Source of the DNA: an uncultured Dictyoglomota bacterium
GTDB lineage: Bacteria > Dictyoglomota > Dictyoglomia > Dictyoglomales > Dictyoglomaceae
Direction of reading: 5' to 3'
Length of the DNA stretch: 10,779 nt
NCBI GenBank assembly: GCA_964654465.1
Contig: CAZZIO010000038.1
Location: forward strand, 1-10,779
A program made the translations under genes and the position numbers. Below, in pieces: positions 2,027-10,616 of this stretch. A model generated the notes under the pieces. That model saw only the letters and a list, made by a program, of their open reading frames with translations, ran no database searches and had not been told where the DNA came from. Each line of letters begins with the position of its first letter. The first letter of the stretch is position 1.

Positions 2027-2055
2027 TTGCTGAATCAGTTATTTCATGTTATTAT
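2027..2055 (+). promoter_or_regulatory. Sigma70/SigA-type promoter with extended -10 for the three-gene operon
   Basis: TTGCTG (2027-2032), 17-nt spacer, TATTAT (2050-2055), with TG at 2047-2048. RBS GAGGT at 2088-2092 precedes ATG 2099. Confidence 0.55.
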
Positions 2056-2098
2056 TAATACAGATAAGTTAATAGATAATCATTATTGAGGTAAAATT

Positions 2099-3184
2099 AT
2101 GATTAGAATATGTATAATAGGTGCAGGAAACGGAGGACAAGCTTTAGCAGGTTACCTTTCTATGAAAGGTTATGATGTTTCCTTATACAATAGAAGCGAG
2201 TGGAGAATAGAACCTATTAAAAATTCTGGAAAAATCATATTAGAAGGAGAATATTCTGGGGAATATGAAATCTCTTTAGCAACTACAGATATAAAATCTG
2301 CAATAAAGGATAGAGAACTAATCTTAGTTGTAGTACCAGCCTTTGCTCATAGAGAGATAGCTGAGAAATTGGCACCTCACTTAGAAGATGATCAATTAAT
2401 TGTTTTAAATCCAGGAAGAACAGGAGGAGCTTTGGAGTTTAGAAAAGTTTTAAAGGATAAAGGATGTAGAAAAAAGGTGTTTATTGCTGAAGCCCAAACT
2501 TTCATATTTGCTTCAAGATGTTCTAACCCTGGAGTAGTAAGAATATTTAGAAAAAAGAATGCGGTTCCAGTATCCTGCCTTCCTGCAAAGGATAATCCAA
2601 TATTACAGAAAACATTAAAAAGAGTAATGCCTGAATTTGAAATTGCAAAAAATATAGTTATTACAAGTTTCAACAATATAGGTGCAGTTTTTCATCCAGC
2701 TACTACAATTTTAAATGTAGCAAGAATTGAATTCACTTTTGGAAAATTTGAATTCTATTTTGAAGGAATATCCCCTTCTGTAGCAAAAGTTTTAGAATCT
2801 ATTGATGAAGAAAGATGCAATGTTATGAAAGCTTTTAAAGTAGAGCCTCTCACAGCAAAACAATGGTTAAAATATGCTTATGATGTAGATGGTAGAGATC
2901 TTTATGAAGCTATTCACAGTAACTCTGGATATAGAGACATAATGGCACCTACCGTAATTGCTAATAGATATATTTTAGAAGATGTGCCCATGAGTCTTGT
3001 CCCCATCTCCTCCTTTGGAAAACATTTTGGCATCTCTACTCCTACTATAGATGCTACTATACATCTTGTTTCTGTTATGATGGGAGAGGATTACTATTCT
3101 AAGGGGAGGACTGTAAAATCTTTGGGCTTAGAGGGAATGACTGCAGAAGATATAATAAGATACATAGAGGTGGGGGAAGAGTGA
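2099..3184 (+). CDS. NAD(P)-dependent octopine/nopaline (opine) dehydrogenase family protein
   Basis: 361 aa. Rossmann IIGAGNGG followed by YNRS; family motifs LNPGRTGG, AEAQT, NNIGAVFHP, FYFEG and RYILEDVP. Confidence 0.9.
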   Translation: MIRICIIGAGNGGQALAGYLSMKGYDVSLYNRSEWRIEPIKNSGKIILEGEYSGEYEISLATTDIKSAIKDRELILVVVPAFAHREIAEKLAPHLEDDQLIVLNPGRTGGALEFRKVLKDKGCRKKVFIAEAQTFIFASRCSNPGVVRIFRKKNAVPVSCLPAKDNPILQKTLKRVMPEFEIAKNIVITSFNNIGAVFHPATTILNVARIEFTFGKFEFYFEGISPSVAKVLESIDEERCNVMKAFKVEPLTAKQWLKYAYDVDGRDLYEAIHSNSGYRDIMAPTVIANRYILEDVPMSLVPISSFGKHFGISTPTIDATIHLVSVMMGEDYYSKGRTVKSLGLEGMTAEDIIRYIEVGEE

Positions 3185-4812
3185 AAAAGATTTTAGGGGC
3201 AAGTATTGGAAGTTGTATTCATACCGCAGGAGTTCTTAATTTTTTAAACCTTGCTGAGAAATTAGGCTTTAAAACTATATATCTTGGAGGAGCAATTTCC
3301 ATAAAGGAACTCATAGAGGCAATTATTGAGACAAATCCAGAAATTGTTGCTATAAGTTATAGATTAGGAAGAGAACCGTTAAGAAATTTACTTTCAGATT
3401 TAGAAAAGGAACTTAAAAGCAAAAACTTAATGGAAAACAGGATATTTCTATTTGGAGGTACAAAGGAAACAGGTGAAGTAGCAAGGGAATTTTCCTATAT
3501 TTATAAGGTTTTTGATGGCTCAGAAGAGATAGAAGATGTCATAGATTTTTTAAAAGAGATTCAGGGAGAGATTATAGATAAAAAAGATAAAAGGACATTT
3601 CCTCAAACTTTAAAAGAAAGAATAAATTGGAAAAGTCCCTTTCCTCTATTCAGACATCATATAGGCCTCCCAAGTCTTGATGAAACCATAAAAGAAATAG
3701 AAAAATTAGCAGATTCAGGATTATTAGATATTATCTCAATAGCTCCAGACCAAAATACTCAAAGCTATTTTTTTGAACCTGAAAAAATGGATCCAAAACA
3801 AGATGGTGCAGGAGGGGTTCCGTTAAGGAAAAAAGAGGATTTTATAAGATTATATAATGCTACAAGAAGAGGAAACTTTCCATTATTAAGATGTTATTCT
3901 GGCACTAAAAATCTTATTGAATTTTCAAAGCTTCTTAAAGAAACCATTAATAATGCATGGTCCGCTATACCTCTAACTTGGTATTCTGATTTGGACAGAA
4001 GATCAGATCGAGAACTTTTATCAGCAATAAAAGAAAATATGGAAGGTATAAAATGGAATGCAGAAAATGGAATTCCTGTAGAAATCAATGAATCTCATCA
4101 ATGGGAACTAAGAAATGCCCATGATGCCATTGGAGTTGCAACATGCTATATAGCTAGTTTAGTAGCAAAGAAACTTGGGGTTAAGGAATACGTAGCTCAA
4201 TATATGCTAAATACTCCTCCCAATATATCACCTAAGATGGATATAGCAAAGGCTCTTGCAAAGATTGAGCTTGTAGAATCTTTACATGATGAAGATTTTG
4301 TCTCTTACAGAATGATAAGAACAGGACTTTTATCCTTTCCAGCAGACCCTTATTCTGCTATGGGACAATTGGTATCCTCAATGTTTTATGGGGCCTATTT
4401 AAAACCCCATATAATTCATGTAGTATCCTATTCTGAGGCTATGTATCCTGCGAGGAGTAAAGAGATTATAGAGAGTGTAAAGATGGTGAAAAGAGCTTAT
4501 ATCTTAGCTTCTTCAGGGCTTCCTGATTTCTCATCGGATCCCGAAATTCTCAAAAGAAAGGAAGAACTAAAAGAGGAAGCTTTAATTATTCTCGACGCTA
4601 TAAAAAACTTGGCAAAATCAGAGGATGATTTTTTATCACCTGAAAATATATATAATGCCATCAAATGCGGTATATTAGATGCTCCCATGCTCAAAGGATT
4701 CTCTGTGGCAAGAGGGGAAGTTAAAACTTTCGTAATAAATGGTGCTAATTATTGTGTAGATGAAAGGGGAAAAATTCTTAAAGAAAAGGAAAGAATAGAA
4801 AGATTAATATGA
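3181..4812 (+). CDS. Cobalamin-binding-domain protein fused to a large catalytic domain (putative AdoCbl-dependent mutase-like enzyme)
   Basis: 543 aa. The N-terminal B12-binding domain has CIHTAG (variant of DxHxxG, His14), SYRL and FGG at the expected spacing. The ~400-aa C-terminal domain has no CxxxCxxC. GTGA overlap with the upstream stop; GAGGTG RBS. Confidence 0.8.
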   Translation: MKKILGASIGSCIHTAGVLNFLNLAEKLGFKTIYLGGAISIKELIEAIIETNPEIVAISYRLGREPLRNLLSDLEKELKSKNLMENRIFLFGGTKETGEVAREFSYIYKVFDGSEEIEDVIDFLKEIQGEIIDKKDKRTFPQTLKERINWKSPFPLFRHHIGLPSLDETIKEIEKLADSGLLDIISIAPDQNTQSYFFEPEKMDPKQDGAGGVPLRKKEDFIRLYNATRRGNFPLLRCYSGTKNLIEFSKLLKETINNAWSAIPLTWYSDLDRRSDRELLSAIKENMEGIKWNAENGIPVEINESHQWELRNAHDAIGVATCYIASLVAKKLGVKEYVAQYMLNTPPNISPKMDIAKALAKIELVESLHDEDFVSYRMIRTGLLSFPADPYSAMGQLVSSMFYGAYLKPHIIHVVSYSEAMYPARSKEIIESVKMVKRAYILASSGLPDFSSDPEILKRKEELKEEALIILDAIKNLAKSEDDFLSPENIYNAIKCGILDAPMLKGFSVARGEVKTFVINGANYCVDERGKILKEKERIERLI

Positions 4813-5744
4813 GAATTGGGATAGCTTATAATCTTCCTTGTTCTTCAGATTATGAATTAATGGTAAATGAAATAGAAAATATTCTAAAAGATGAGGGATA
4901 TACTGTAACTTTAATCCCTGTCTCAGAAAACTTTCTAGAAAGAATTAAAAGTGTTGACTTTGTTTTCAATCTTTTCACTCAAGGAAAAGAAACAAGACAA
5001 ATACTTATACCATCACTATGTGATTTTTTAGGGATCCCCTATACAGGTCCTTCAGCATATACCCACTCTCTCTGTCTTAATAAAACCCATACCAAGATTT
5101 TATTACAATACTACAAAATTCCAACACCTCCATTTTTTCTTGTGTATCCTGATGAAAGAATACCCAAGAATATTAATCTTTCTTTTCCTCTTTTTGTCAA
5201 ACCAAACAGAGAGGGGAGTGGAAAGGGAATAAGAAAAGAGTCCTTAGTAAGAAACAAAGAAGAGCTAAAATATATGATAGATTATATTCATAAAGAATTT
5301 CAAGAAGAAGCTTTAGTTGAGGAATTCATAGAGGGTAAAGAGATAAGTGTGGGAATTCTCGGAAACAAGAAGAATTTAGAGATTCTCCCCCTCTTGGAAA
5401 TTGATTTTTCAGAACTTCCTGAAAGTGTTGAAAGATTTTACTCTGGAAGAGTAAAAGAAGAGTTTGGAGAGAAAACTAAATATTTTTGTCCTGCAAGAAT
5501 AGATAAAAATATAGAAAAAAGTATAAAAGATATTGCAAGAAGTATTTTTATGTATTTTGGACTTAGAGATTATGCAAGGATTGATGTGAGAGTAAGAGGA
5601 GAAGAAATTTTTATTTTAGATGTAAATTCACTTCCTCTTTTAATTCCTAATTACTCTGATATTGTAAAAATGGCAGAAGCAAAAGGATACAGTTACAAAG
5701 ATTTAATATTAAAAATCCTTAATAGCTCACTATCCAAAGAGTGA
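4809..5744 (+). CDS. ATP-grasp ligase, D-Ala-D-Ala ligase-like but not canonical Ddl
   Basis: 311 aa with GIPYTG, LNKTHTK, FPLFVKPNREGSGKGI, LVEEFIEGKEISVG, YARIDVR and ILDVNSLP. Lacks the Ddl N-terminal GGxSxE motif. ATGA overlap with the upstream gene. Confidence 0.88.
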   Translation: MRIGIAYNLPCSSDYELMVNEIENILKDEGYTVTLIPVSENFLERIKSVDFVFNLFTQGKETRQILIPSLCDFLGIPYTGPSAYTHSLCLNKTHTKILLQYYKIPTPPFFLVYPDERIPKNINLSFPLFVKPNREGSGKGIRKESLVRNKEELKYMIDYIHKEFQEEALVEEFIEGKEISVGILGNKKNLEILPLLEIDFSELPESVERFYSGRVKEEFGEKTKYFCPARIDKNIEKSIKDIARSIFMYFGLRDYARIDVRVRGEEIFILDVNSLPLLIPNYSDIVKMAEAKGYSYKDLILKILNSSLSKE

Positions 5745-5811
5745 AATAGAAGATCATTTCTACAGAATAAAAGATAAAAACTAATAATATCTAACGAATT
5801 GAAGTTGTGCT

Positions 5812-5840
5812 ATTTAAATCCCACATAGTTCAGATCAAAC
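5812..5840 (-). CRISPR. Solitary CRISPR-like repeat (29 bp, type I-B-like); no array
   Basis: The minus strand reads GTTTGATCTGAACTATGTGGGATTTAAAT. Length, GTTT start and ATTTAAAT 3' handle match, from memory, Thermotogae/Clostridia-type I-B repeats. No second copy at spacer distance on either side. Confidence 0.65.
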
Positions 5841-5915
5841 TTTTTCATGATAATATCTTTAAATTTTACCTTAATGAACTAAGAGACAGGATAAGAGCTT
5901 ATAGATGTGGAAGAG

Positions 5916-6083
5916 ATGAAAACTTTATTAAAAAGGATAGTTTGTGGATATTTTAAGACTTCAGATTATAAATCTATTGAAAAAGGAGAAAAATTGTTAT
6001 ACTTAGGGGAAGTAAGAGAAAAAAGATATTTAGTATCTATCAAAGATTTAAAATGGACAATTAATGATTGGAGAGATTTTTAG
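5916..6083 (+). pseudogene. 55-aa ORF, probably the C-terminal fragment of a larger unknown gene
   Basis: MKTLLKRIVCGYFKTSDYKSIEKGEKLLYLGEVREKRYLVSIKDLKWTINDWRDF*. The frame extends upstream (ELIDVEE) to a stop; purine-rich, coding-like composition. Confidence 0.4.
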
Positions 6084-6122
6084 AGGATAACAAGATTTTA
6101 AAACTAAAAGGAGGAAATTAAT

Positions 6123-6213
6123 ATGGTAAATTTAGATAATTGAAGTTATTAAAACAAGAAGAATTGTTAGAGAATATATAGATAAAGAGATTGAAGAAGA
6201 AAAGCTAAAGTAA
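6123..6213 (+). pseudogene. Nitroreductase-family N-terminal remnant (frameshifted, truncated)
   Basis: Strong RBS AAGGAGG at 6108-6114 and ATG at 6123, with a stop at 6141. The +1 frame from 6136 reads IIEVIKTRRIVREYIDKEIEEEKLK*, matching the nitroreductase IxxRRS(I/V)Rx(F/Y)xxxxI FMN-binding start. Confidence 0.7.
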
Positions 6214-6474
6214 AAAGCAGTTTAAAAAAGAGAAAGATGAATTTTTCATTAAGTGAGATATTTTGGCTAAGTTTACTAAAAGATTATAGGTAAACCAACC
6301 ATCCTTTGTGATAAAATATATAGACTTAGAAGTAACAGTAAGAATTCCTGTATCCACATGAACTTTTTTAAAAGTTTCTACAGAATTTCCTTTAAAAGAT
6401 CCAACACGATAATAAACCCTTTTGGCTATTTTAATATTTTCTCCATACTTCTCTTCAAGGTAGTCTATACTACC
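6205..6474 (-). pseudogene. Start-less fragment of a conserved hypothetical protein
   Basis: 89 open codons GSIDYLEEKYGENIKIAKRVYYRVGSFKGNSVETFKKVHVDTGILTVTSKSIYFITKDGWFTYNLLVNLAKI..., preceded by TGA TAA with no start codon. The beta-rich GxLxVTxKxIYF pattern is reminiscent of bacterial PH-like domains. Confidence 0.5.
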
Positions 6475-6476
6475 TT
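6457..6476. repeat. Perfect 8-bp inverted repeat
   Basis: AAGGTAGT-CTAT-ACTACCTT, located at the broken 5' end of the minus-strand fragment. Confidence 0.7.
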
Positions 6477-6781
6477 ATCAAAGTATATTAAACTCATTTA
6501 AATTAAAGGTTAAAGAAATAAGATAAAGTTCTAAAAAAAGCAGAAACAAAGGAAATTTTCTTGTAGAGATTGAAGTAAATTTAAAGACTTGTAATCTGCT
6601 CTCGCTTATGATAAACAAAATGTAACCTAAAAAATAAAAAAACATTACAACTCTACTATAATCCATACCTTTATAAATGATACTTTTTTTAATAAAAATT
6701 ATCCTTAATTAAAGTAACAAGTATACCCATTATAAACTGTATTAATGTTGGGCTATATATTCTTTTTTGGGATAAAAATTC

Positions 6782-9322
6782 TCACACTTTTTCCTCTTTC
6801 TCAATCTCTATCCCTGCTTGTTTTAGCGTTTCTAATATTTTATCTTCGTAATCAGAAACACTAACTTCTCCATTCTGTGCAGATATCTCAATCTTTACCC
6901 TACACTCATCAAAACGGGCATTCAGATAATTAACGACTTTTACTACATCAGATATTTTCCCTTTGGGAACATCCAATTTAAGGTCTATTTTTTTATATCT
7001 TTTAGAAATAATTTTCCCTTCTTCTTCTCCTATTTGAGATTCTTCTACAGATACTTGATATTCATATAAGGCCTTTTGTTCTTCAACTTTCTGGAATTTA
7101 GGTTCTTCACTTTTAGTTATACAAAGTTCTGGTTTTAAGATTATCTCATTATCTGAAAACTCTGGATATATATTTTCCTTAAAATACTTACATTCGGGTA
7201 TTCCATTTTCAAGATACCCAAGACCAAAGATTCCTTTTTCAACTCCTTCCTTAATACTTTCTTTAAAAATCTCTGAAGACATTATTCTTAGCTCTCCAGG
7301 AGTTTTCCATAAAGACTCAAGTATTTTTCTTGTTTCGACGTATTCTCTATCAGATAGATATTTATTCTTTATCATCGCTGGAGAAAGTTTTTCAAGGATT
7401 TCTTCATCATTTTTAAGTTTGTTATATATCTCGTTAGTTGATTCTCCAAAAGTTTGAATGCCAAGATCTATTTCTTTGAAACCATCCTTTTTAGGTATAA
7501 AAACCTTGCGATAATACTTTCTTAATTCCTCATATAATCTTTTTTCGTGAGTTAAAAGCTTATTTTTTACCTCATTCTTCTGAGCCTCACTCAAATGTAG
7601 GCTTTCATCCCTACTAATAGATCTTAATGCCAACATCCTTCTAACAAACCTATAGAAATTCTCTCTCTGAGTCTCGTCTATACAAAGAAAAATCATTGTA
7701 TTGCAATATACCCTTGGGCTTTCTCCGTGTTTTTCAATAAAATCCCTATCTGGCTCTCTCTTATTCAATACAATCAGTTTTATGTCACTTGTGTCTGGAA
7801 TATCTCTGTGATCTCTGGGCCATATATATTTTTTTGAAAACTGCCTTTCGTTTGAAAGATATTTTTCTATAATCTCTCTTTCTTCCTCTATAATCTCATC
7901 ATTGATTATATTCTCCTCTCTCGTTAACAAGATCTTATTAAGGTTAGGTCGGTTTGTGAAGTATAATCCCTCGTCAGATAAGTAAAACAGATGTTCCCTT
8001 AAATTAGTTATAACTGTATCAATTACAGTACTTGAAAGGTCTGGATGCAATACGCTGAGTTTGAGCTCTTTTATGGTACTACTTCTCTCACCTTTACCCG
8101 AGAAAGATAGCATAAAGATAGTAGTACCTACGACGGTTCCAAGTTGATAGGGTTTATAAGCAGAGCCTATAATATTGTCCACCTTCTTTGCTCCTGAATT
8201 TTGGGAAACTATATCATTAGCGATAATACTATCCCACTCTTGACCTATATGTTTAATCAGCTCCCTTTTTATCTCATTATTTTCAAGATTAAAGTCCCCA
8301 AGGCGAATGAATGGAATATTTTTTCCAAGAAGGTTATGAATAACAAGGGAAAGAAGTCTCAAAACACTTCTTGTTCTCTGAAAGGTTGGAAAGGATCCCC
8401 ATCTTTTATATAAAACATCAATAACTTCCGGTTTGAAAGGATAACTTTTTAAAAACCTTTCTCTGTATTTTACCGCTTCTTCATCTGAAAGTAGTCCTTC
8501 GCTTTTTGCATAATCCACAAATTCATCCACCACTTCTTTTGCTTCCTTTTCATTTATGCTCTGAAAGAGTCTTTTTCTTATTACATACTCAATCTCATCA
8601 TCCTCTACTGGAGTATAGATTTTCTCAGTTCTTCCAGTAATTTTTTGTAATTGTGTAAATAGCTTTTCAGCATTTTCATCGTAATGCTCTAACTCACTTG
8701 AGGGCAGAGTAATAACAAGAAGAGCATTTCCAACAGTAGATACTACTCCAGAAAGTTCCTGAATAAAAGCAAATACCTGAGCAGCAAGATTGGAATCTCC
8801 AACCTTTATACCAGCTGCTTTTGTAGTATATAGAAGGACTTCATCCATAAGAATAAGTACAGGAGAATTCTTTGAAATCAATTCAAAAAGTTTCTCTCTA
8901 CCGGGTGATATATCTCCTTTGGTAATCTCAACTTTTCCTGTTAGCTGTCTCTCAAGTTCCTCCCATAGCCTTGTTTCCTTGATATCAAATTCAGTTCCAT
9001 CTAAAACCACAACCTTCACGTTCCATTCCTTTGCTTTATGGTAAAGGGCAATTAAAGTATGGGTTTTACCTCCGCCAAAGGGTGTCTGGAGCTGAATTAC
9101 TGGATCTCCAGATTTGCCTTCAAGTCGGTTTTTAGCTATCTCAAGAACTTCCCTTAATCCTTTTGTTATATGAGTTTTTCTAAAAAATAGATCCTTGTCC
9201 TGATATTCTGCTTGAGCTATTCCTTTTGCCACCTGCCAGAGGTCTGCTGCAAAAACATCCATGGTAAGACGTCCTTTAAGAATATCTTCATGAGGTTTTG
9301 ATATCTGAGTAAATGGTTTCAT
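6782..9322 (-). CDS. DUF499-family AAA+ ATPase (BrxC-related) of a restriction-like defence locus
   Basis: 846 aa. N-terminal PHEDIL..FAADL, Walker A LQTPFGGGKTH, Walker B LILMDE, SYPFKPE and FQRTRSVLRLL are typical of DUF499. GGAGG RBS at 9334-9330. Adjacent to a DNA methyltransferase. Confidence 0.9.
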   Translation of the reverse strand: MKPFTQISKPHEDILKGRLTMDVFAADLWQVAKGIAQAEYQDKDLFFRKTHITKGLREVLEIAKNRLEGKSGDPVIQLQTPFGGGKTHTLIALYHKAKEWNVKVVVLDGTEFDIKETRLWEELERQLTGKVEITKGDISPGREKLFELISKNSPVLILMDEVLLYTTKAAGIKVGDSNLAAQVFAFIQELSGVVSTVGNALLVITLPSSELEHYDENAEKLFTQLQKITGRTEKIYTPVEDDEIEYVIRKRLFQSINEKEAKEVVDEFVDYAKSEGLLSDEEAVKYRERFLKSYPFKPEVIDVLYKRWGSFPTFQRTRSVLRLLSLVIHNLLGKNIPFIRLGDFNLENNEIKRELIKHIGQEWDSIIANDIVSQNSGAKKVDNIIGSAYKPYQLGTVVGTTIFMLSFSGKGERSSTIKELKLSVLHPDLSSTVIDTVITNLREHLFYLSDEGLYFTNRPNLNKILLTREENIINDEIIEEEREIIEKYLSNERQFSKKYIWPRDHRDIPDTSDIKLIVLNKREPDRDFIEKHGESPRVYCNTMIFLCIDETQRENFYRFVRRMLALRSISRDESLHLSEAQKNEVKNKLLTHEKRLYEELRKYYRKVFIPKKDGFKEIDLGIQTFGESTNEIYNKLKNDEEILEKLSPAMIKNKYLSDREYVETRKILESLWKTPGELRIMSSEIFKESIKEGVEKGIFGLGYLENGIPECKYFKENIYPEFSDNEIILKPELCITKSEEPKFQKVEEQKALYEYQVSVEESQIGEEEGKIISKRYKKIDLKLDVPKGKISDVVKVVNYLNARFDECRVKIEISAQNGEVSVSDYEDKILETLKQAGIEIEKEEKV

Positions 9323-9356: not shown

Positions 9357-10616
9357 TTACTTCTTGCTTTGAAAATCTTCATTCAAAAGTTCCCTTTGTA
9401 TCGGTATATCTTTAATCTCATCTATCAGTTTCTCTTTCCCACTTAAAAATCCATCAAGGAGTTTTTTCTCCCTGCTTTCAATAGGCAAAGTCTCTGAAAT
9501 AGCTTGGGCAACTTTATAAAAAATTTCCTTTTTAATGTATCCAGTTTCTTCAAGCACCTTTTTCATGTTCTCTTTCTTACCAGCTTTCCAAAGTAGCAAA
9601 ACATGGTGAAGAACATCAATAAGTTCATATGAACCTTCAAGCTCCTCAAGTTTTCTATCTTGGGGTCCAAGAACCCTTATAAATTCCTTCTCCTTCTTTA
9701 TAAAGCCTTTATTCCAATGTTTCTCAAGATCAATTCCTGTACTCTGGGCAAGCTTTCTTGCATCGTCAAAAGGTACAGTAGCCTCCTCATACGTCCATCT
9801 CCATAGGATGTAAAACCTTGTTAACGGGGTTAGCTCTCCTGCAATGCCATTGTGAAGAATTTGCCTTACTGCATAATCGGTAACAATCTCTCGGACATAC
9901 TCAAGGAGTTTATAAGCCTCAACTATATTTCCTTCATAATCCATTATTTTTTTGTATTTACCAAATATCTCAATGGCAGAGCCAATTGCTGCAATAAAGT
10001 AATCAGCCCCACTTACTCCCTCTTTCCAAAGATGATCCAATTTATTATATACATATTTTTTGATCTCCTCTTTTACCTCATGAAACCATCCTATACCCTC
10101 CTTTTTTGCTTTTCTTGCCACTATATATATGGAGGATGCAAGAGATGCTGTTTCTTTTGCATTAATCCTTGACTTCATCTCGGTATCTATAGGCCAAGAG
10201 GCAGAGGGCACAAGACCAGAATCTAAAAGGGAGTTTATCAAAGTCTCCCAACCTGAGGTAGATTTATGAGTGTACACAATCACACAGATTCCATTAGGCT
10301 TTAATACTCTATATATCTCTTGAAAAGCCTTTTTAAGATTTTCCTCAAAAAATTTCTTTGCATTGATCGAACCACCATGCCTAACAGGATTTGCTACTAT
10401 TTCTTTACTCTTAAGTGTCAAAGGGGTTAAAAATAAATCTGGGTATAAATCCCCTATACTTCTTTTTAACCACACATAGAAAAAGTCTGAAAGTTCAGAA
10501 TAATTTATATTATCATAATAAGGTGGATCAGTAAAAACAGCATCAAAGAAATTATCAGGATAAGGAAGTTCTGTGGCTGATGCTTGAATAACTTTGGGTA
10601 GCAAGAGTTTTTTCAT
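9357..10616 (-). CDS. Amino-DNA methyltransferase, C-terminal half of a DUF1156-type enzyme
   Basis: 419 aa with DAVFTDPPYYDNINYSELSDFFYVWLKR (motif IV), RVLKPNG, WPIDTE and LASSIYIVARK. No FxGxG SAM-binding motif I in this ORF. Own GGAGG RBS at 10628-10624. Confidence 0.88.
   Translation of the reverse strand: MKKLLLPKVIQASATELPYPDNFFDAVFTDPPYYDNINYSELSDFFYVWLKRSIGDLYPDLFLTPLTLKSKEIVANPVRHGGSINAKKFFEENLKKAFQEIYRVLKPNGICVIVYTHKSTSGWETLINSLLDSGLVPSASWPIDTEMKSRINAKETASLASSIYIVARKAKKEGIGWFHEVKEEIKKYVYNKLDHLWKEGVSGADYFIAAIGSAIEIFGKYKKIMDYEGNIVEAYKLLEYVREIVTDYAVRQILHNGIAGELTPLTRFYILWRWTYEEATVPFDDARKLAQSTGIDLEKHWNKGFIKKEKEFIRVLGPQDRKLEELEGSYELIDVLHHVLLLWKAGKKENMKKVLEETGYIKKEIFYKVAQAISETLPIESREKKLLDGFLSGKEKLIDEIKDIPIQRELLNEDFQSKK

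Follow-up and report, generated by a model that had tools for sequence, protein, structure and literature searches.

What might an opine dehydrogenase, a cobalamin (B12)-binding protein and an ATP-grasp ligase make together? This question is raised by a cassette of three overlapping genes carried by an uncultured Dictyoglomota bacterium, on a complete contig of 10.8 kb (contig C38 of genome G000) that is called the window throughout. The reading that we favour is a mobile three-gene biosynthetic operon built around an acidic amino acid, which would be turned into a rearranged acidic opine or opine-peptide; we hold the scales for and against this reading as a whole to be about level.

The three genes and their predicted enzymes

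All three genes lie on the forward strand. The first (positions 2099-3184) encodes an opine dehydrogenase (ODH) of 361 residues, of the CENDH/ArODH type, with a PF02317 domain. The second (3181-4812) encodes a protein of 543 residues, in which a B12-binding domain (residues 1-130) is followed by a barrel (residues ~150-543) that resembles the TIM barrel of the glutamate mutase subunit GlmE. The third (4809-5744) encodes a 311-residue ligase with a PF07478 domain, which is an ATP-grasp paralogue of the Ddl family. The ODH and B12 genes overlap at a GTGA (GAGTGAAA), and the B12 and ligase genes at an ATGA (AATATGAGA). A preliminary description of this DNA had reported three genes joined in this way, and the open reading frames and the letters at the junctions bear it out; the domain content that it listed (opine dehydrogenase, B12-binding and ATP-grasp) agrees with the Pfam matches.

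The N-terminal part of the 543-residue protein matched the B12-binding family PF02310 with 33.7 bits (cut-off 32.1). Relatives of this protein are numerous: 2582 proteins were recovered at E<=0.001 among the 8000 candidates examined, and 666 representatives at the same threshold in a 50% identity library. Compared with the motif DxHxxG ... SxL ... GG, the window protein reads S-C-I-H-T-A-G, then SYRL and FGGT, and the histidine of this motif (His14 in the window) was present in 29 of 30 sequences in an alignment of diverse family members. An AlphaFold model built from this 30-member alignment reached a mean pLDDT of 93. When the model was compared with the PDB using Foldseek, GlmE structures came first (6h9e_B, E 3.3e-18; 1cb7_B, E 9.4e-18; TM 0.65-0.67 by target), followed by ornithine 4,5-aminomutase and lysine 5,6-aminomutase and then by acyl-CoA mutases. 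Each of the eight predicted barrel strands has near-invariant residues at its C-terminal end or just beyond it, among them R158/H159/H160, D190/Q191/N192, R237/Y239, E301/N303/H306, R380 and H413/E419; in the model, this placement at all eight strand ends is as expected for a catalytic barrel.

Several relatives carry additional domains. P0147, P0151 and P0155 are fused to MutL, a member of the glutamate mutase reactivase family, and in P0132 (43% identical) the fused domain is an ATP-grasp ligase of the glutathione-synthetase (GshB)/RimK type. The genome further encodes a CobA-type adenosyltransferase, and in three Caldisericota loci an ODH-B12-Ddl cassette is immediately preceded, on the same strand, by a block in which a cobalamin riboswitch leads into BtuF-, BtuC- and ABC-ATPase-like genes. 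Taken together, the GlmE fold, the barrel residues, the MutL and ATP-grasp fusions, the Caldisericota riboswitch with its Btu genes and the CobA-type enzyme support the prediction that the 543-residue protein is an adenosylcobalamin radical isomerase. It had previously been described as a mutase-like B12 enzyme. The mutase class stands, but the closest fold is that of glutamate mutase E and not that of the pyridoxal phosphate (PLP) aminomutases, and a Cys replaces the Asp of DxHxxG. The Caldisericota blocks were located in L004 and L005 (654-3862 in each) and in L007 (from 1542), with riboswitch scores of 92-99 bits. Another relative, P0139, ends in a weak Peptidase_M15 (VanX/LD-peptidase-like) tail (E 5e-4). 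A supposed second paralogue of the family in Thermotogota was rejected, its weak PF06368 match being methylmalonyl-CoA mutase.

Could the 543-residue protein be glutamate mutase itself? A canonical operon for this enzyme is found on contig C32 (~97,300-104,300; locus L041), where glmS (141 residues), glmL/MutL (455 residues) and glmE (483 residues) are accompanied by genes for a methylaspartate ammonia-lyase and an AtuA-like protein and by a fumarase-type gene; an M20 peptidase gene and an Asp/Glu racemase gene lie upstream of this operon. The canonical GlmE of the genome scored 735 bits on PF06368 and aligned without gaps to the C. cochlearium enzyme. The 543-residue protein, by comparison, remained below the equivalog cut-offs (TIGR01503 MutE, 16.4 vs 390.1; NF002612 MutS, 24.8 vs 110). 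In an hhalign alignment of low confidence (probability 14.5%), GlmE R66, R100, R149 and Glu171, which we take to be the glutamate-binding residues, were aligned with H160, Q194, Y239 and a gap, respectively. In the same low-confidence alignment, Arg158 and Arg237 stood two residues from aligned GlmE arginine positions, and GlmE E330, presumably the adenosyl-ribose ligand, was aligned with the near-invariant E419. As judged from this mapping, the glutamate pocket has probably been rebuilt. Because a canonical glmS-glmL-glmE set is present on contig C32 and, in that low-confidence alignment, other residues take the places of the glutamate-binding arginines, we consider on sequence grounds that the 543-residue protein is a paralogue with another substrate, not glutamate mutase itself.

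The ODH matched PF02317 with 157.2 bits (cut-off 30; E 3.9e-46) and is the sole PF02317 gene in the genome. Its residues 5-353 aligned with the Arthrobacter CENDH (1BG6) at E 5.5e-82. The residues G8, G10 and G13 of the dinucleotide fold are invariant, and H199, R290 and D295 align with 1BG6 residues that we take to be the catalytic His202, the substrate Arg292 and the catalytic Asp297 (His202 confirmed by counting through the alignment). Through the 1BG6 alignment, R107, G195 and R32 correspond to ArODH positions 111, 198 and 35. All six residues (H199, R290, D295, R107, G195 and R32) are invariant in the 26 ODHs that adjoin B12 genes.

These correspondences narrow the candidate substrates of the ODH. 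Telek et al. 2024 (PMC10787698) characterised six mODHs from hot springs, which with pyruvate favour L-Asp, L-Glu and sulfonate analogues; in reciprocal double mutants, Arg111 together with Gly198 (ArODH numbering) switched the preference to L-Asp and acidic amino acids, and an Arg at ArODH position 35 marks NADPH acceptance. Since R107 and G195 match Arg111 and Gly198 and are invariant, the window ODH is predicted to be specific for acidic amino acids, and would make their N-(1-carboxyethyl) derivatives. It is also predicted to be able to use NADPH. With this signature, the chemistry is narrowed beyond the reach of the preliminary description.

The ligase matched PF07478 (Dala_Dala_lig_C) with 118.7 bits and fell below every NCBIfam Ddl cut-off (158.7 vs 243; 146.3 vs 245.65). 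A second Ddl gene, on contig C18, scored 339.6 and 312.7 on the same models and passes as the canonical Ddl of the genome. The closest PDB matches of the ligase were VanA and Ddl (E ~1e-25). In the 22 ligase orthologues, K131, K216, R257, D259, D/E271 and N273 are invariant; these positions match Lys144, Lys215, Arg255, Asp257, Glu270 and Asn272 of DdlB, which we take to be the ATP-grasp catalytic residues. The substrate side is different: at the position of the omega-loop Tyr216 (217 in the ligase) the Ddl on C18 has Y and the orthologues have E, N, H or K, Arg261 and Asp284 do not vary among the orthologues and are Ile and Leu in the C18 Ddl, and the N-terminal D-Ala1 motif (Glu15) is variable among the orthologues. 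By its sequence, the ligase is a divergent Ddl-family paralogue with a changed substrate pocket. The name of non-canonical ATP-grasp ligase that it was first given is right as to the ATP-grasp fold, and Ddl-family paralogue is the more exact assignment.

Conservation, probable mobility and surroundings of the cassette

To follow the cassette in other organisms, 38 loci were compared, taken from contigs of one genome per species that encode a relative of the 543-residue protein. The ODH gene is directly adjacent to the B12 gene in 36 of these loci, and the remaining two loci begin inside the B12 gene. The ODH-mutase pair is the conserved core of the cassette. A check of co-occurrence across genomes had been proposed for all three genes; it holds for this pair, but a Ddl-like gene is adjacent in only 23 of the 38 loci. 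Three gene orders were found (ODH-B12-Ddl, Ddl-ODH-B12 and B12-ODH), and carriers occur in Dictyoglomota, Caldisericota, Thermotogota, Bacteroidales, Actinomycetota and Firmicutes. Homologues of the 543-residue protein are named from the cultured Thermosipho africanus, Petrotoga mobilis and Kosmotoga pacifica. The close and ancient linkage across phyla, the three gene orders and the mutase-ATP-grasp fusion in P0132 support the proposal that the genes serve a single small amino-acid pathway.

In the Mesoaciditoga loci, ispE directly follows the cassette (L025, 6205-7011), and the ispE of a Fervidobacterium genome has a stand-alone MutL gene two genes upstream of it (L049, 7225-10011). This likeness between the two neighbourhoods may be a trace of shared ancestry, or chance. 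The GHMP kinase beside the Mesoaciditoga cassette was considered as PduX; this candidate was rejected, the gene being IspE.

Within the phylum, the B12 gene was found in 5 of 11 genomes, with the present genome counted; all four congeners lack it, including two that are 99% complete and assembled as a single contig. The window shares a stretch (2042-5725) with 85% DNA identity with genome G008, which belongs to another genus, and the three cassette proteins are 85-92% identical to those of that relative. The flanking genes, for a family-21 glycosyltransferase (GT21) and PlsY, show 73-74% DNA identity to the congeners and have no match in the other genus; ten other genes of the relative's locus found their best matches in the present genome at 49-87%. 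Because the gene is present in 5 of 11 genomes, is missing from four congeners and shows 85% DNA identity to another genus with unlike flanks, the cassette is considered to be accessory and has probably been moved horizontally as a unit. The cassette had been described as a discrete unit, and it proved to be one: the DNA match to G008 spans exactly 2042-5725, and each Dictyoglomaceae relative has different flanks.

A promoter-like element is located upstream of the ODH gene, on the forward strand (2027-2055). It consists of TTGCTG (2027-2032), a spacer of 17 nt and TATTAT (2050-2055), with TGT before the second hexamer, and starts just upstream of the stretch that matches G008. When the upstream region was aligned with those of four related loci, two of these (L001 and L002) proved to have kept this putative promoter. 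The element is absent from the list produced by a consensus scan, which returned 16 promoter-like sites as compared with 25.3 in shuffled sequence, fewer than by shuffling. The single promoter that had been assigned to the cassette is therefore plausible: its conservation in L001 and L002 speaks for it, but the consensus scan neither listed it nor found enrichment over shuffles.

On both sides, the cassette is bordered by AT-rich DNA (1306-2098 and 5745-6781, ~25% GC), in which the open reading frames of at least 60 residues are limited to a single 62-residue frame. These flanks had been interpreted as degraded DNA. A tblastx comparison of both flanks with the rest of the genome and the 38 loci returned no protein-level remnants, and no pseudogene remnants were found in them with proteins of the neighbouring loci. 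The interpretation was not confirmed; the flanks are AT-rich spacers. No long direct or inverted repeats border the cassette. An Rfam scan of the window at E<=1 returned no riboswitch, its matches to DUF805 and mir-1892 being far under their thresholds.

The sole recognisable item in the flanks is a solitary CRISPR repeat (5812-5840), 68 bp past the stop codon of the ligase gene. An array on contig C1 is built of an identical repeat, with 9 copies by exact-pattern scan and a further, partial copy recovered by BLAST. An 11-base core of this repeat occurs once upstream of the cassette (1556-1566; 0.03 chance matches expected), and in the congeners the same repeat is found in arrays 5-13 kb from their GT21/PlsY genes. 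The GT21 and PlsY genes are the upstream genes of the window; the GT21-like reading frame (3-1305) runs past the 5' end of the contig. Each of two complete congeners has two paralogous copies of the GT21 region, with 73-74% and 66-67% DNA identity (L044-L047). On its other side, the cassette adjoins a region of defence type. Two genes of anti-phage-associated kinds are found there on the reverse strand: a DUF499-like gene (6782-9322; 846 residues; NCBIfam 162 vs cut-off 1200) and a DUF1156-like methyltransferase gene (9357-10616; 419 residues; NCBIfam 97 vs cut-off 1000). The latter seems to be a C-terminal portion or a shortened form, because the match covers only positions 574-883 of a model of 960 positions.

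A candidate pathway and competing readings

In the biosynthetic operon that we favour, the ODH would use NAD(P)H to condense pyruvate reductively with an L-amino acid that resembles Asp or Glu, yielding an N-(1-carboxyethyl) amino acid. The mutase would perform a radical 1,2-rearrangement, either of the acidic amino acid before the condensation or of the polycarboxylate opine after it, and the NAD(P)H-driven ODH step could draw this rearrangement forward. The ligase would then spend ATP to form an amide bond between the product and a further amino acid or another acceptor. The pathway would thus end in a small opine or opine-peptide of strongly anionic character, with candidate roles as a solute or as a decoration of envelope or glycan. 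The biosynthetic direction is proposed because an ATP-consuming ligase belongs to the unit.

A bolder version, to which we give a rather small chance, would have the mutase act on the opine delivered by its ODH partner, a secondary-amine polycarboxylate, and not on a free amino acid. This would be a cobalamin-dependent rearrangement that has not been described, giving a branched "iso-opine" that would be ligated into a small anionic molecule and used as a solute or envelope decoration by anaerobes of a dozen phyla. A metallophore had also been suggested as the product. This suggestion found no support: the cassette has no CntL-type gene and no transporter beside it, and the metallophore reading was dropped, as neither genes resembling nicotianamine synthase nor exporter genes recur among its neighbours.

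Several observations weigh against the biosynthetic operon or against parts of it. As regards the mutase, the match of the 543-residue protein to PF06368 (Met_asp_mut_E) reached 25.6 bits, just below the cut-off of 26.6, and the Asp position of DxHxxG holds Cys in 22 of the 30 aligned sequences (the window protein included), Asp in 7 and another residue in 1. The mapping of its residues onto GlmE rests on the hhalign match of low probability given above. No MutL gene adjoins the cassette, and two genomes with a stand-alone MutL also encode ornithine and lysine aminomutases, which are possible MutL clients; on this account, MutL as a dedicated partner was dropped as an argument.

As regards the ligase, it is not adjacent in 15 of the 38 loci. 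Five genomes without an adjacent ligase were searched for a copy elsewhere: two have one of orthologue grade (54% and 48% identity), weaker candidates were found in two more, and in the remaining one, a Bacteroidales genome, no ligase orthologue was found, just a canonical Ddl-like match. Missing beside 15 of the loci and from this Bacteroidales genome, the ligase is therefore dispensable for the core chemistry. The other neighbours of the pair in the 38 loci are unrelated housekeeping genes that vary by lineage. Finally, no cyclic di-AMP (c-di-AMP) riboswitch was found in the window and 37 loci (L022 was not scanned), and a role as a stress solute or in salt stress is therefore unsupported in the present data.

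The same core pair, found without an adjacent ligase in these 15 loci, could instead form a catabolic module. In anaerobic fermentation, it would degrade an acidic amino acid or else a secondary amine similar to an opine, with the ODH working oxidatively to release pyruvate and an amino acid and the mutase rearranging the skeleton as in the methylaspartate pathway. Opine dehydrogenases are reversible, all carriers seen are anaerobic fermenters or metagenome-assembled genomes from such habitats, and B12 mutases are typical of anaerobic amino-acid fermentation; the present genome itself, to judge from its genes, ferments glutamate by the methylaspartate route. Against degradation, no gene for a lyase, hydratase, CoA-transferase or transporter recurs beside the pair in the 38 loci, an ATP-consuming ligase is adjacent in 23 of them and a ligase is fused to the mutase in P0132, and the NADPH acceptance predicted from Arg32 suits reductive biosynthesis. 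We rate a catabolic role as unlikely.

Somewhat less probable still is a cell-envelope module, in which the Ddl-like ligase would attach the product to peptidoglycan, a surface glycan or a lipid. The membership of the ligase in the Ddl family, the weak Peptidase_M15 match of P0139 (E 5e-4) and the GT21 and PlsY genes upstream in the window are consistent with such a role. No envelope gene, however, recurs beside the cassette in the 38 loci, and the D-Ala-specific residues of Ddl are not kept in the ligase. The GT21/PlsY pair is also present in congeners without the cassette, and its adjacency is for this reason considered incidental.

That the 543-residue protein is a corrinoid methyl-transfer or B12-binding regulatory protein and not a radical mutase is very improbable: the best PDB sequence matches of its N-terminal domain are corrinoid proteins of methyltransferase systems (4jgi and 7xcn), several database sources name its homologues "methionine synthase" and Cys replaces Asp in its B12 motif, but its C-terminal 400 residues are modelled with a fold like GlmE, then like the barrels of ornithine aminomutase, lysine aminomutase and methylmalonyl-CoA mutase and not like methyltransferase barrels, MutL occurs as a fusion partner in relatives, and the neighbourhood encodes neither a methyltransferase nor an activation partner.

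Relation to known systems

The combination of genes found here has been noticed before. Zhang, Rodionov, Gelfand and Gladyshev 2009 (BMC Genomics 10:78, PMC2667541) predicted a B12 family from 11 genomes which, in the portion of the paper that describes it, is "always adjacent" to an octopine/nopaline dehydrogenase of PF02317; Ddl and asparagine synthase are given there as nearby, Ddl in several organisms, and the family is placed in Thermotogae, Clostridia and Chloroflexi. With its N-terminal B12-binding domain and its immediate PF02317 neighbour, the window protein is a member of this family, and the cassette is a further member of a family that has been described but is uncharacterised. The literature search found no paper that gives the function of the family, nor one that links opine dehydrogenase with glutamate mutase. 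The earlier statement that no characterised pathway has this combination thus stands, but the combination itself, as that portion of the 2009 paper shows, has been in print since then.

Adenosylcobalamin isomerases of only some twelve kinds are known, each defining a part of anaerobic metabolism. The present family has hundreds of representatives and an enzymatic partner that has been on record as fixed since 2009. The acidic-substrate signature of the ODH, the presence of a true glutamate mutase in the same genome and the reactivase and ligase fusions offer a testable narrowing: together they point to a short list of candidate substrates, namely acidic amino acids and their pyruvate opines.

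Each part of the cassette can be set beside a known system. The window ODH shows full-length similarity to the Arthrobacter N-(1-D-carboxyethyl)-L-norvaline dehydrogenase (CENDH/ArODH) and keeps the catalytic His, Asp and Arg; ArODH differs in having Ala111/Asn198 and in preferring apolar amino acids. The mODHs of Telek et al. 2024 share with the window ODH Arg 111, Gly 198 and Arg 35 (ArODH numbering). The ligase resembles Ddl/VanA-type ligases in its ATP-grasp fold and in keeping the catalytic Lys, Arg, Asp and Asn and the Mg-ligand Glu/Asp. Unlike Ddl, it lacks the omega-loop Tyr and a conserved D-Ala1 site, and its NCBIfam scores are below the cut-offs.

The 543-residue protein shares with glutamate mutase GlmS/GlmE (EC 5.4.99.1; 1CB7, 1CCW and 6H9E) a B12 Rossmann domain with a conserved His; the GlmE TIM barrel is its best fold match, and the residue aligned with E330 is kept. 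In contrast to glutamate mutase, it is one chain and not two subunits, with 17% identity, and the window cassette has no adjacent GlmL or methylaspartase. With the family of Zhang et al. 2009, as that paper's account of it runs, the window protein has in common the distant N-terminal B12-binding domain, the fixed PF02317 neighbour and a Ddl nearby. Beyond that account, which assigns neither a C-terminal fold nor a function, the GlmE fold is now assigned to the barrel, relatives with MutL or an ATP-grasp ligase as fusion partner have been found, and the range of the family now includes Dictyoglomota, Caldisericota, Bacteroidales and Actinomycetota.

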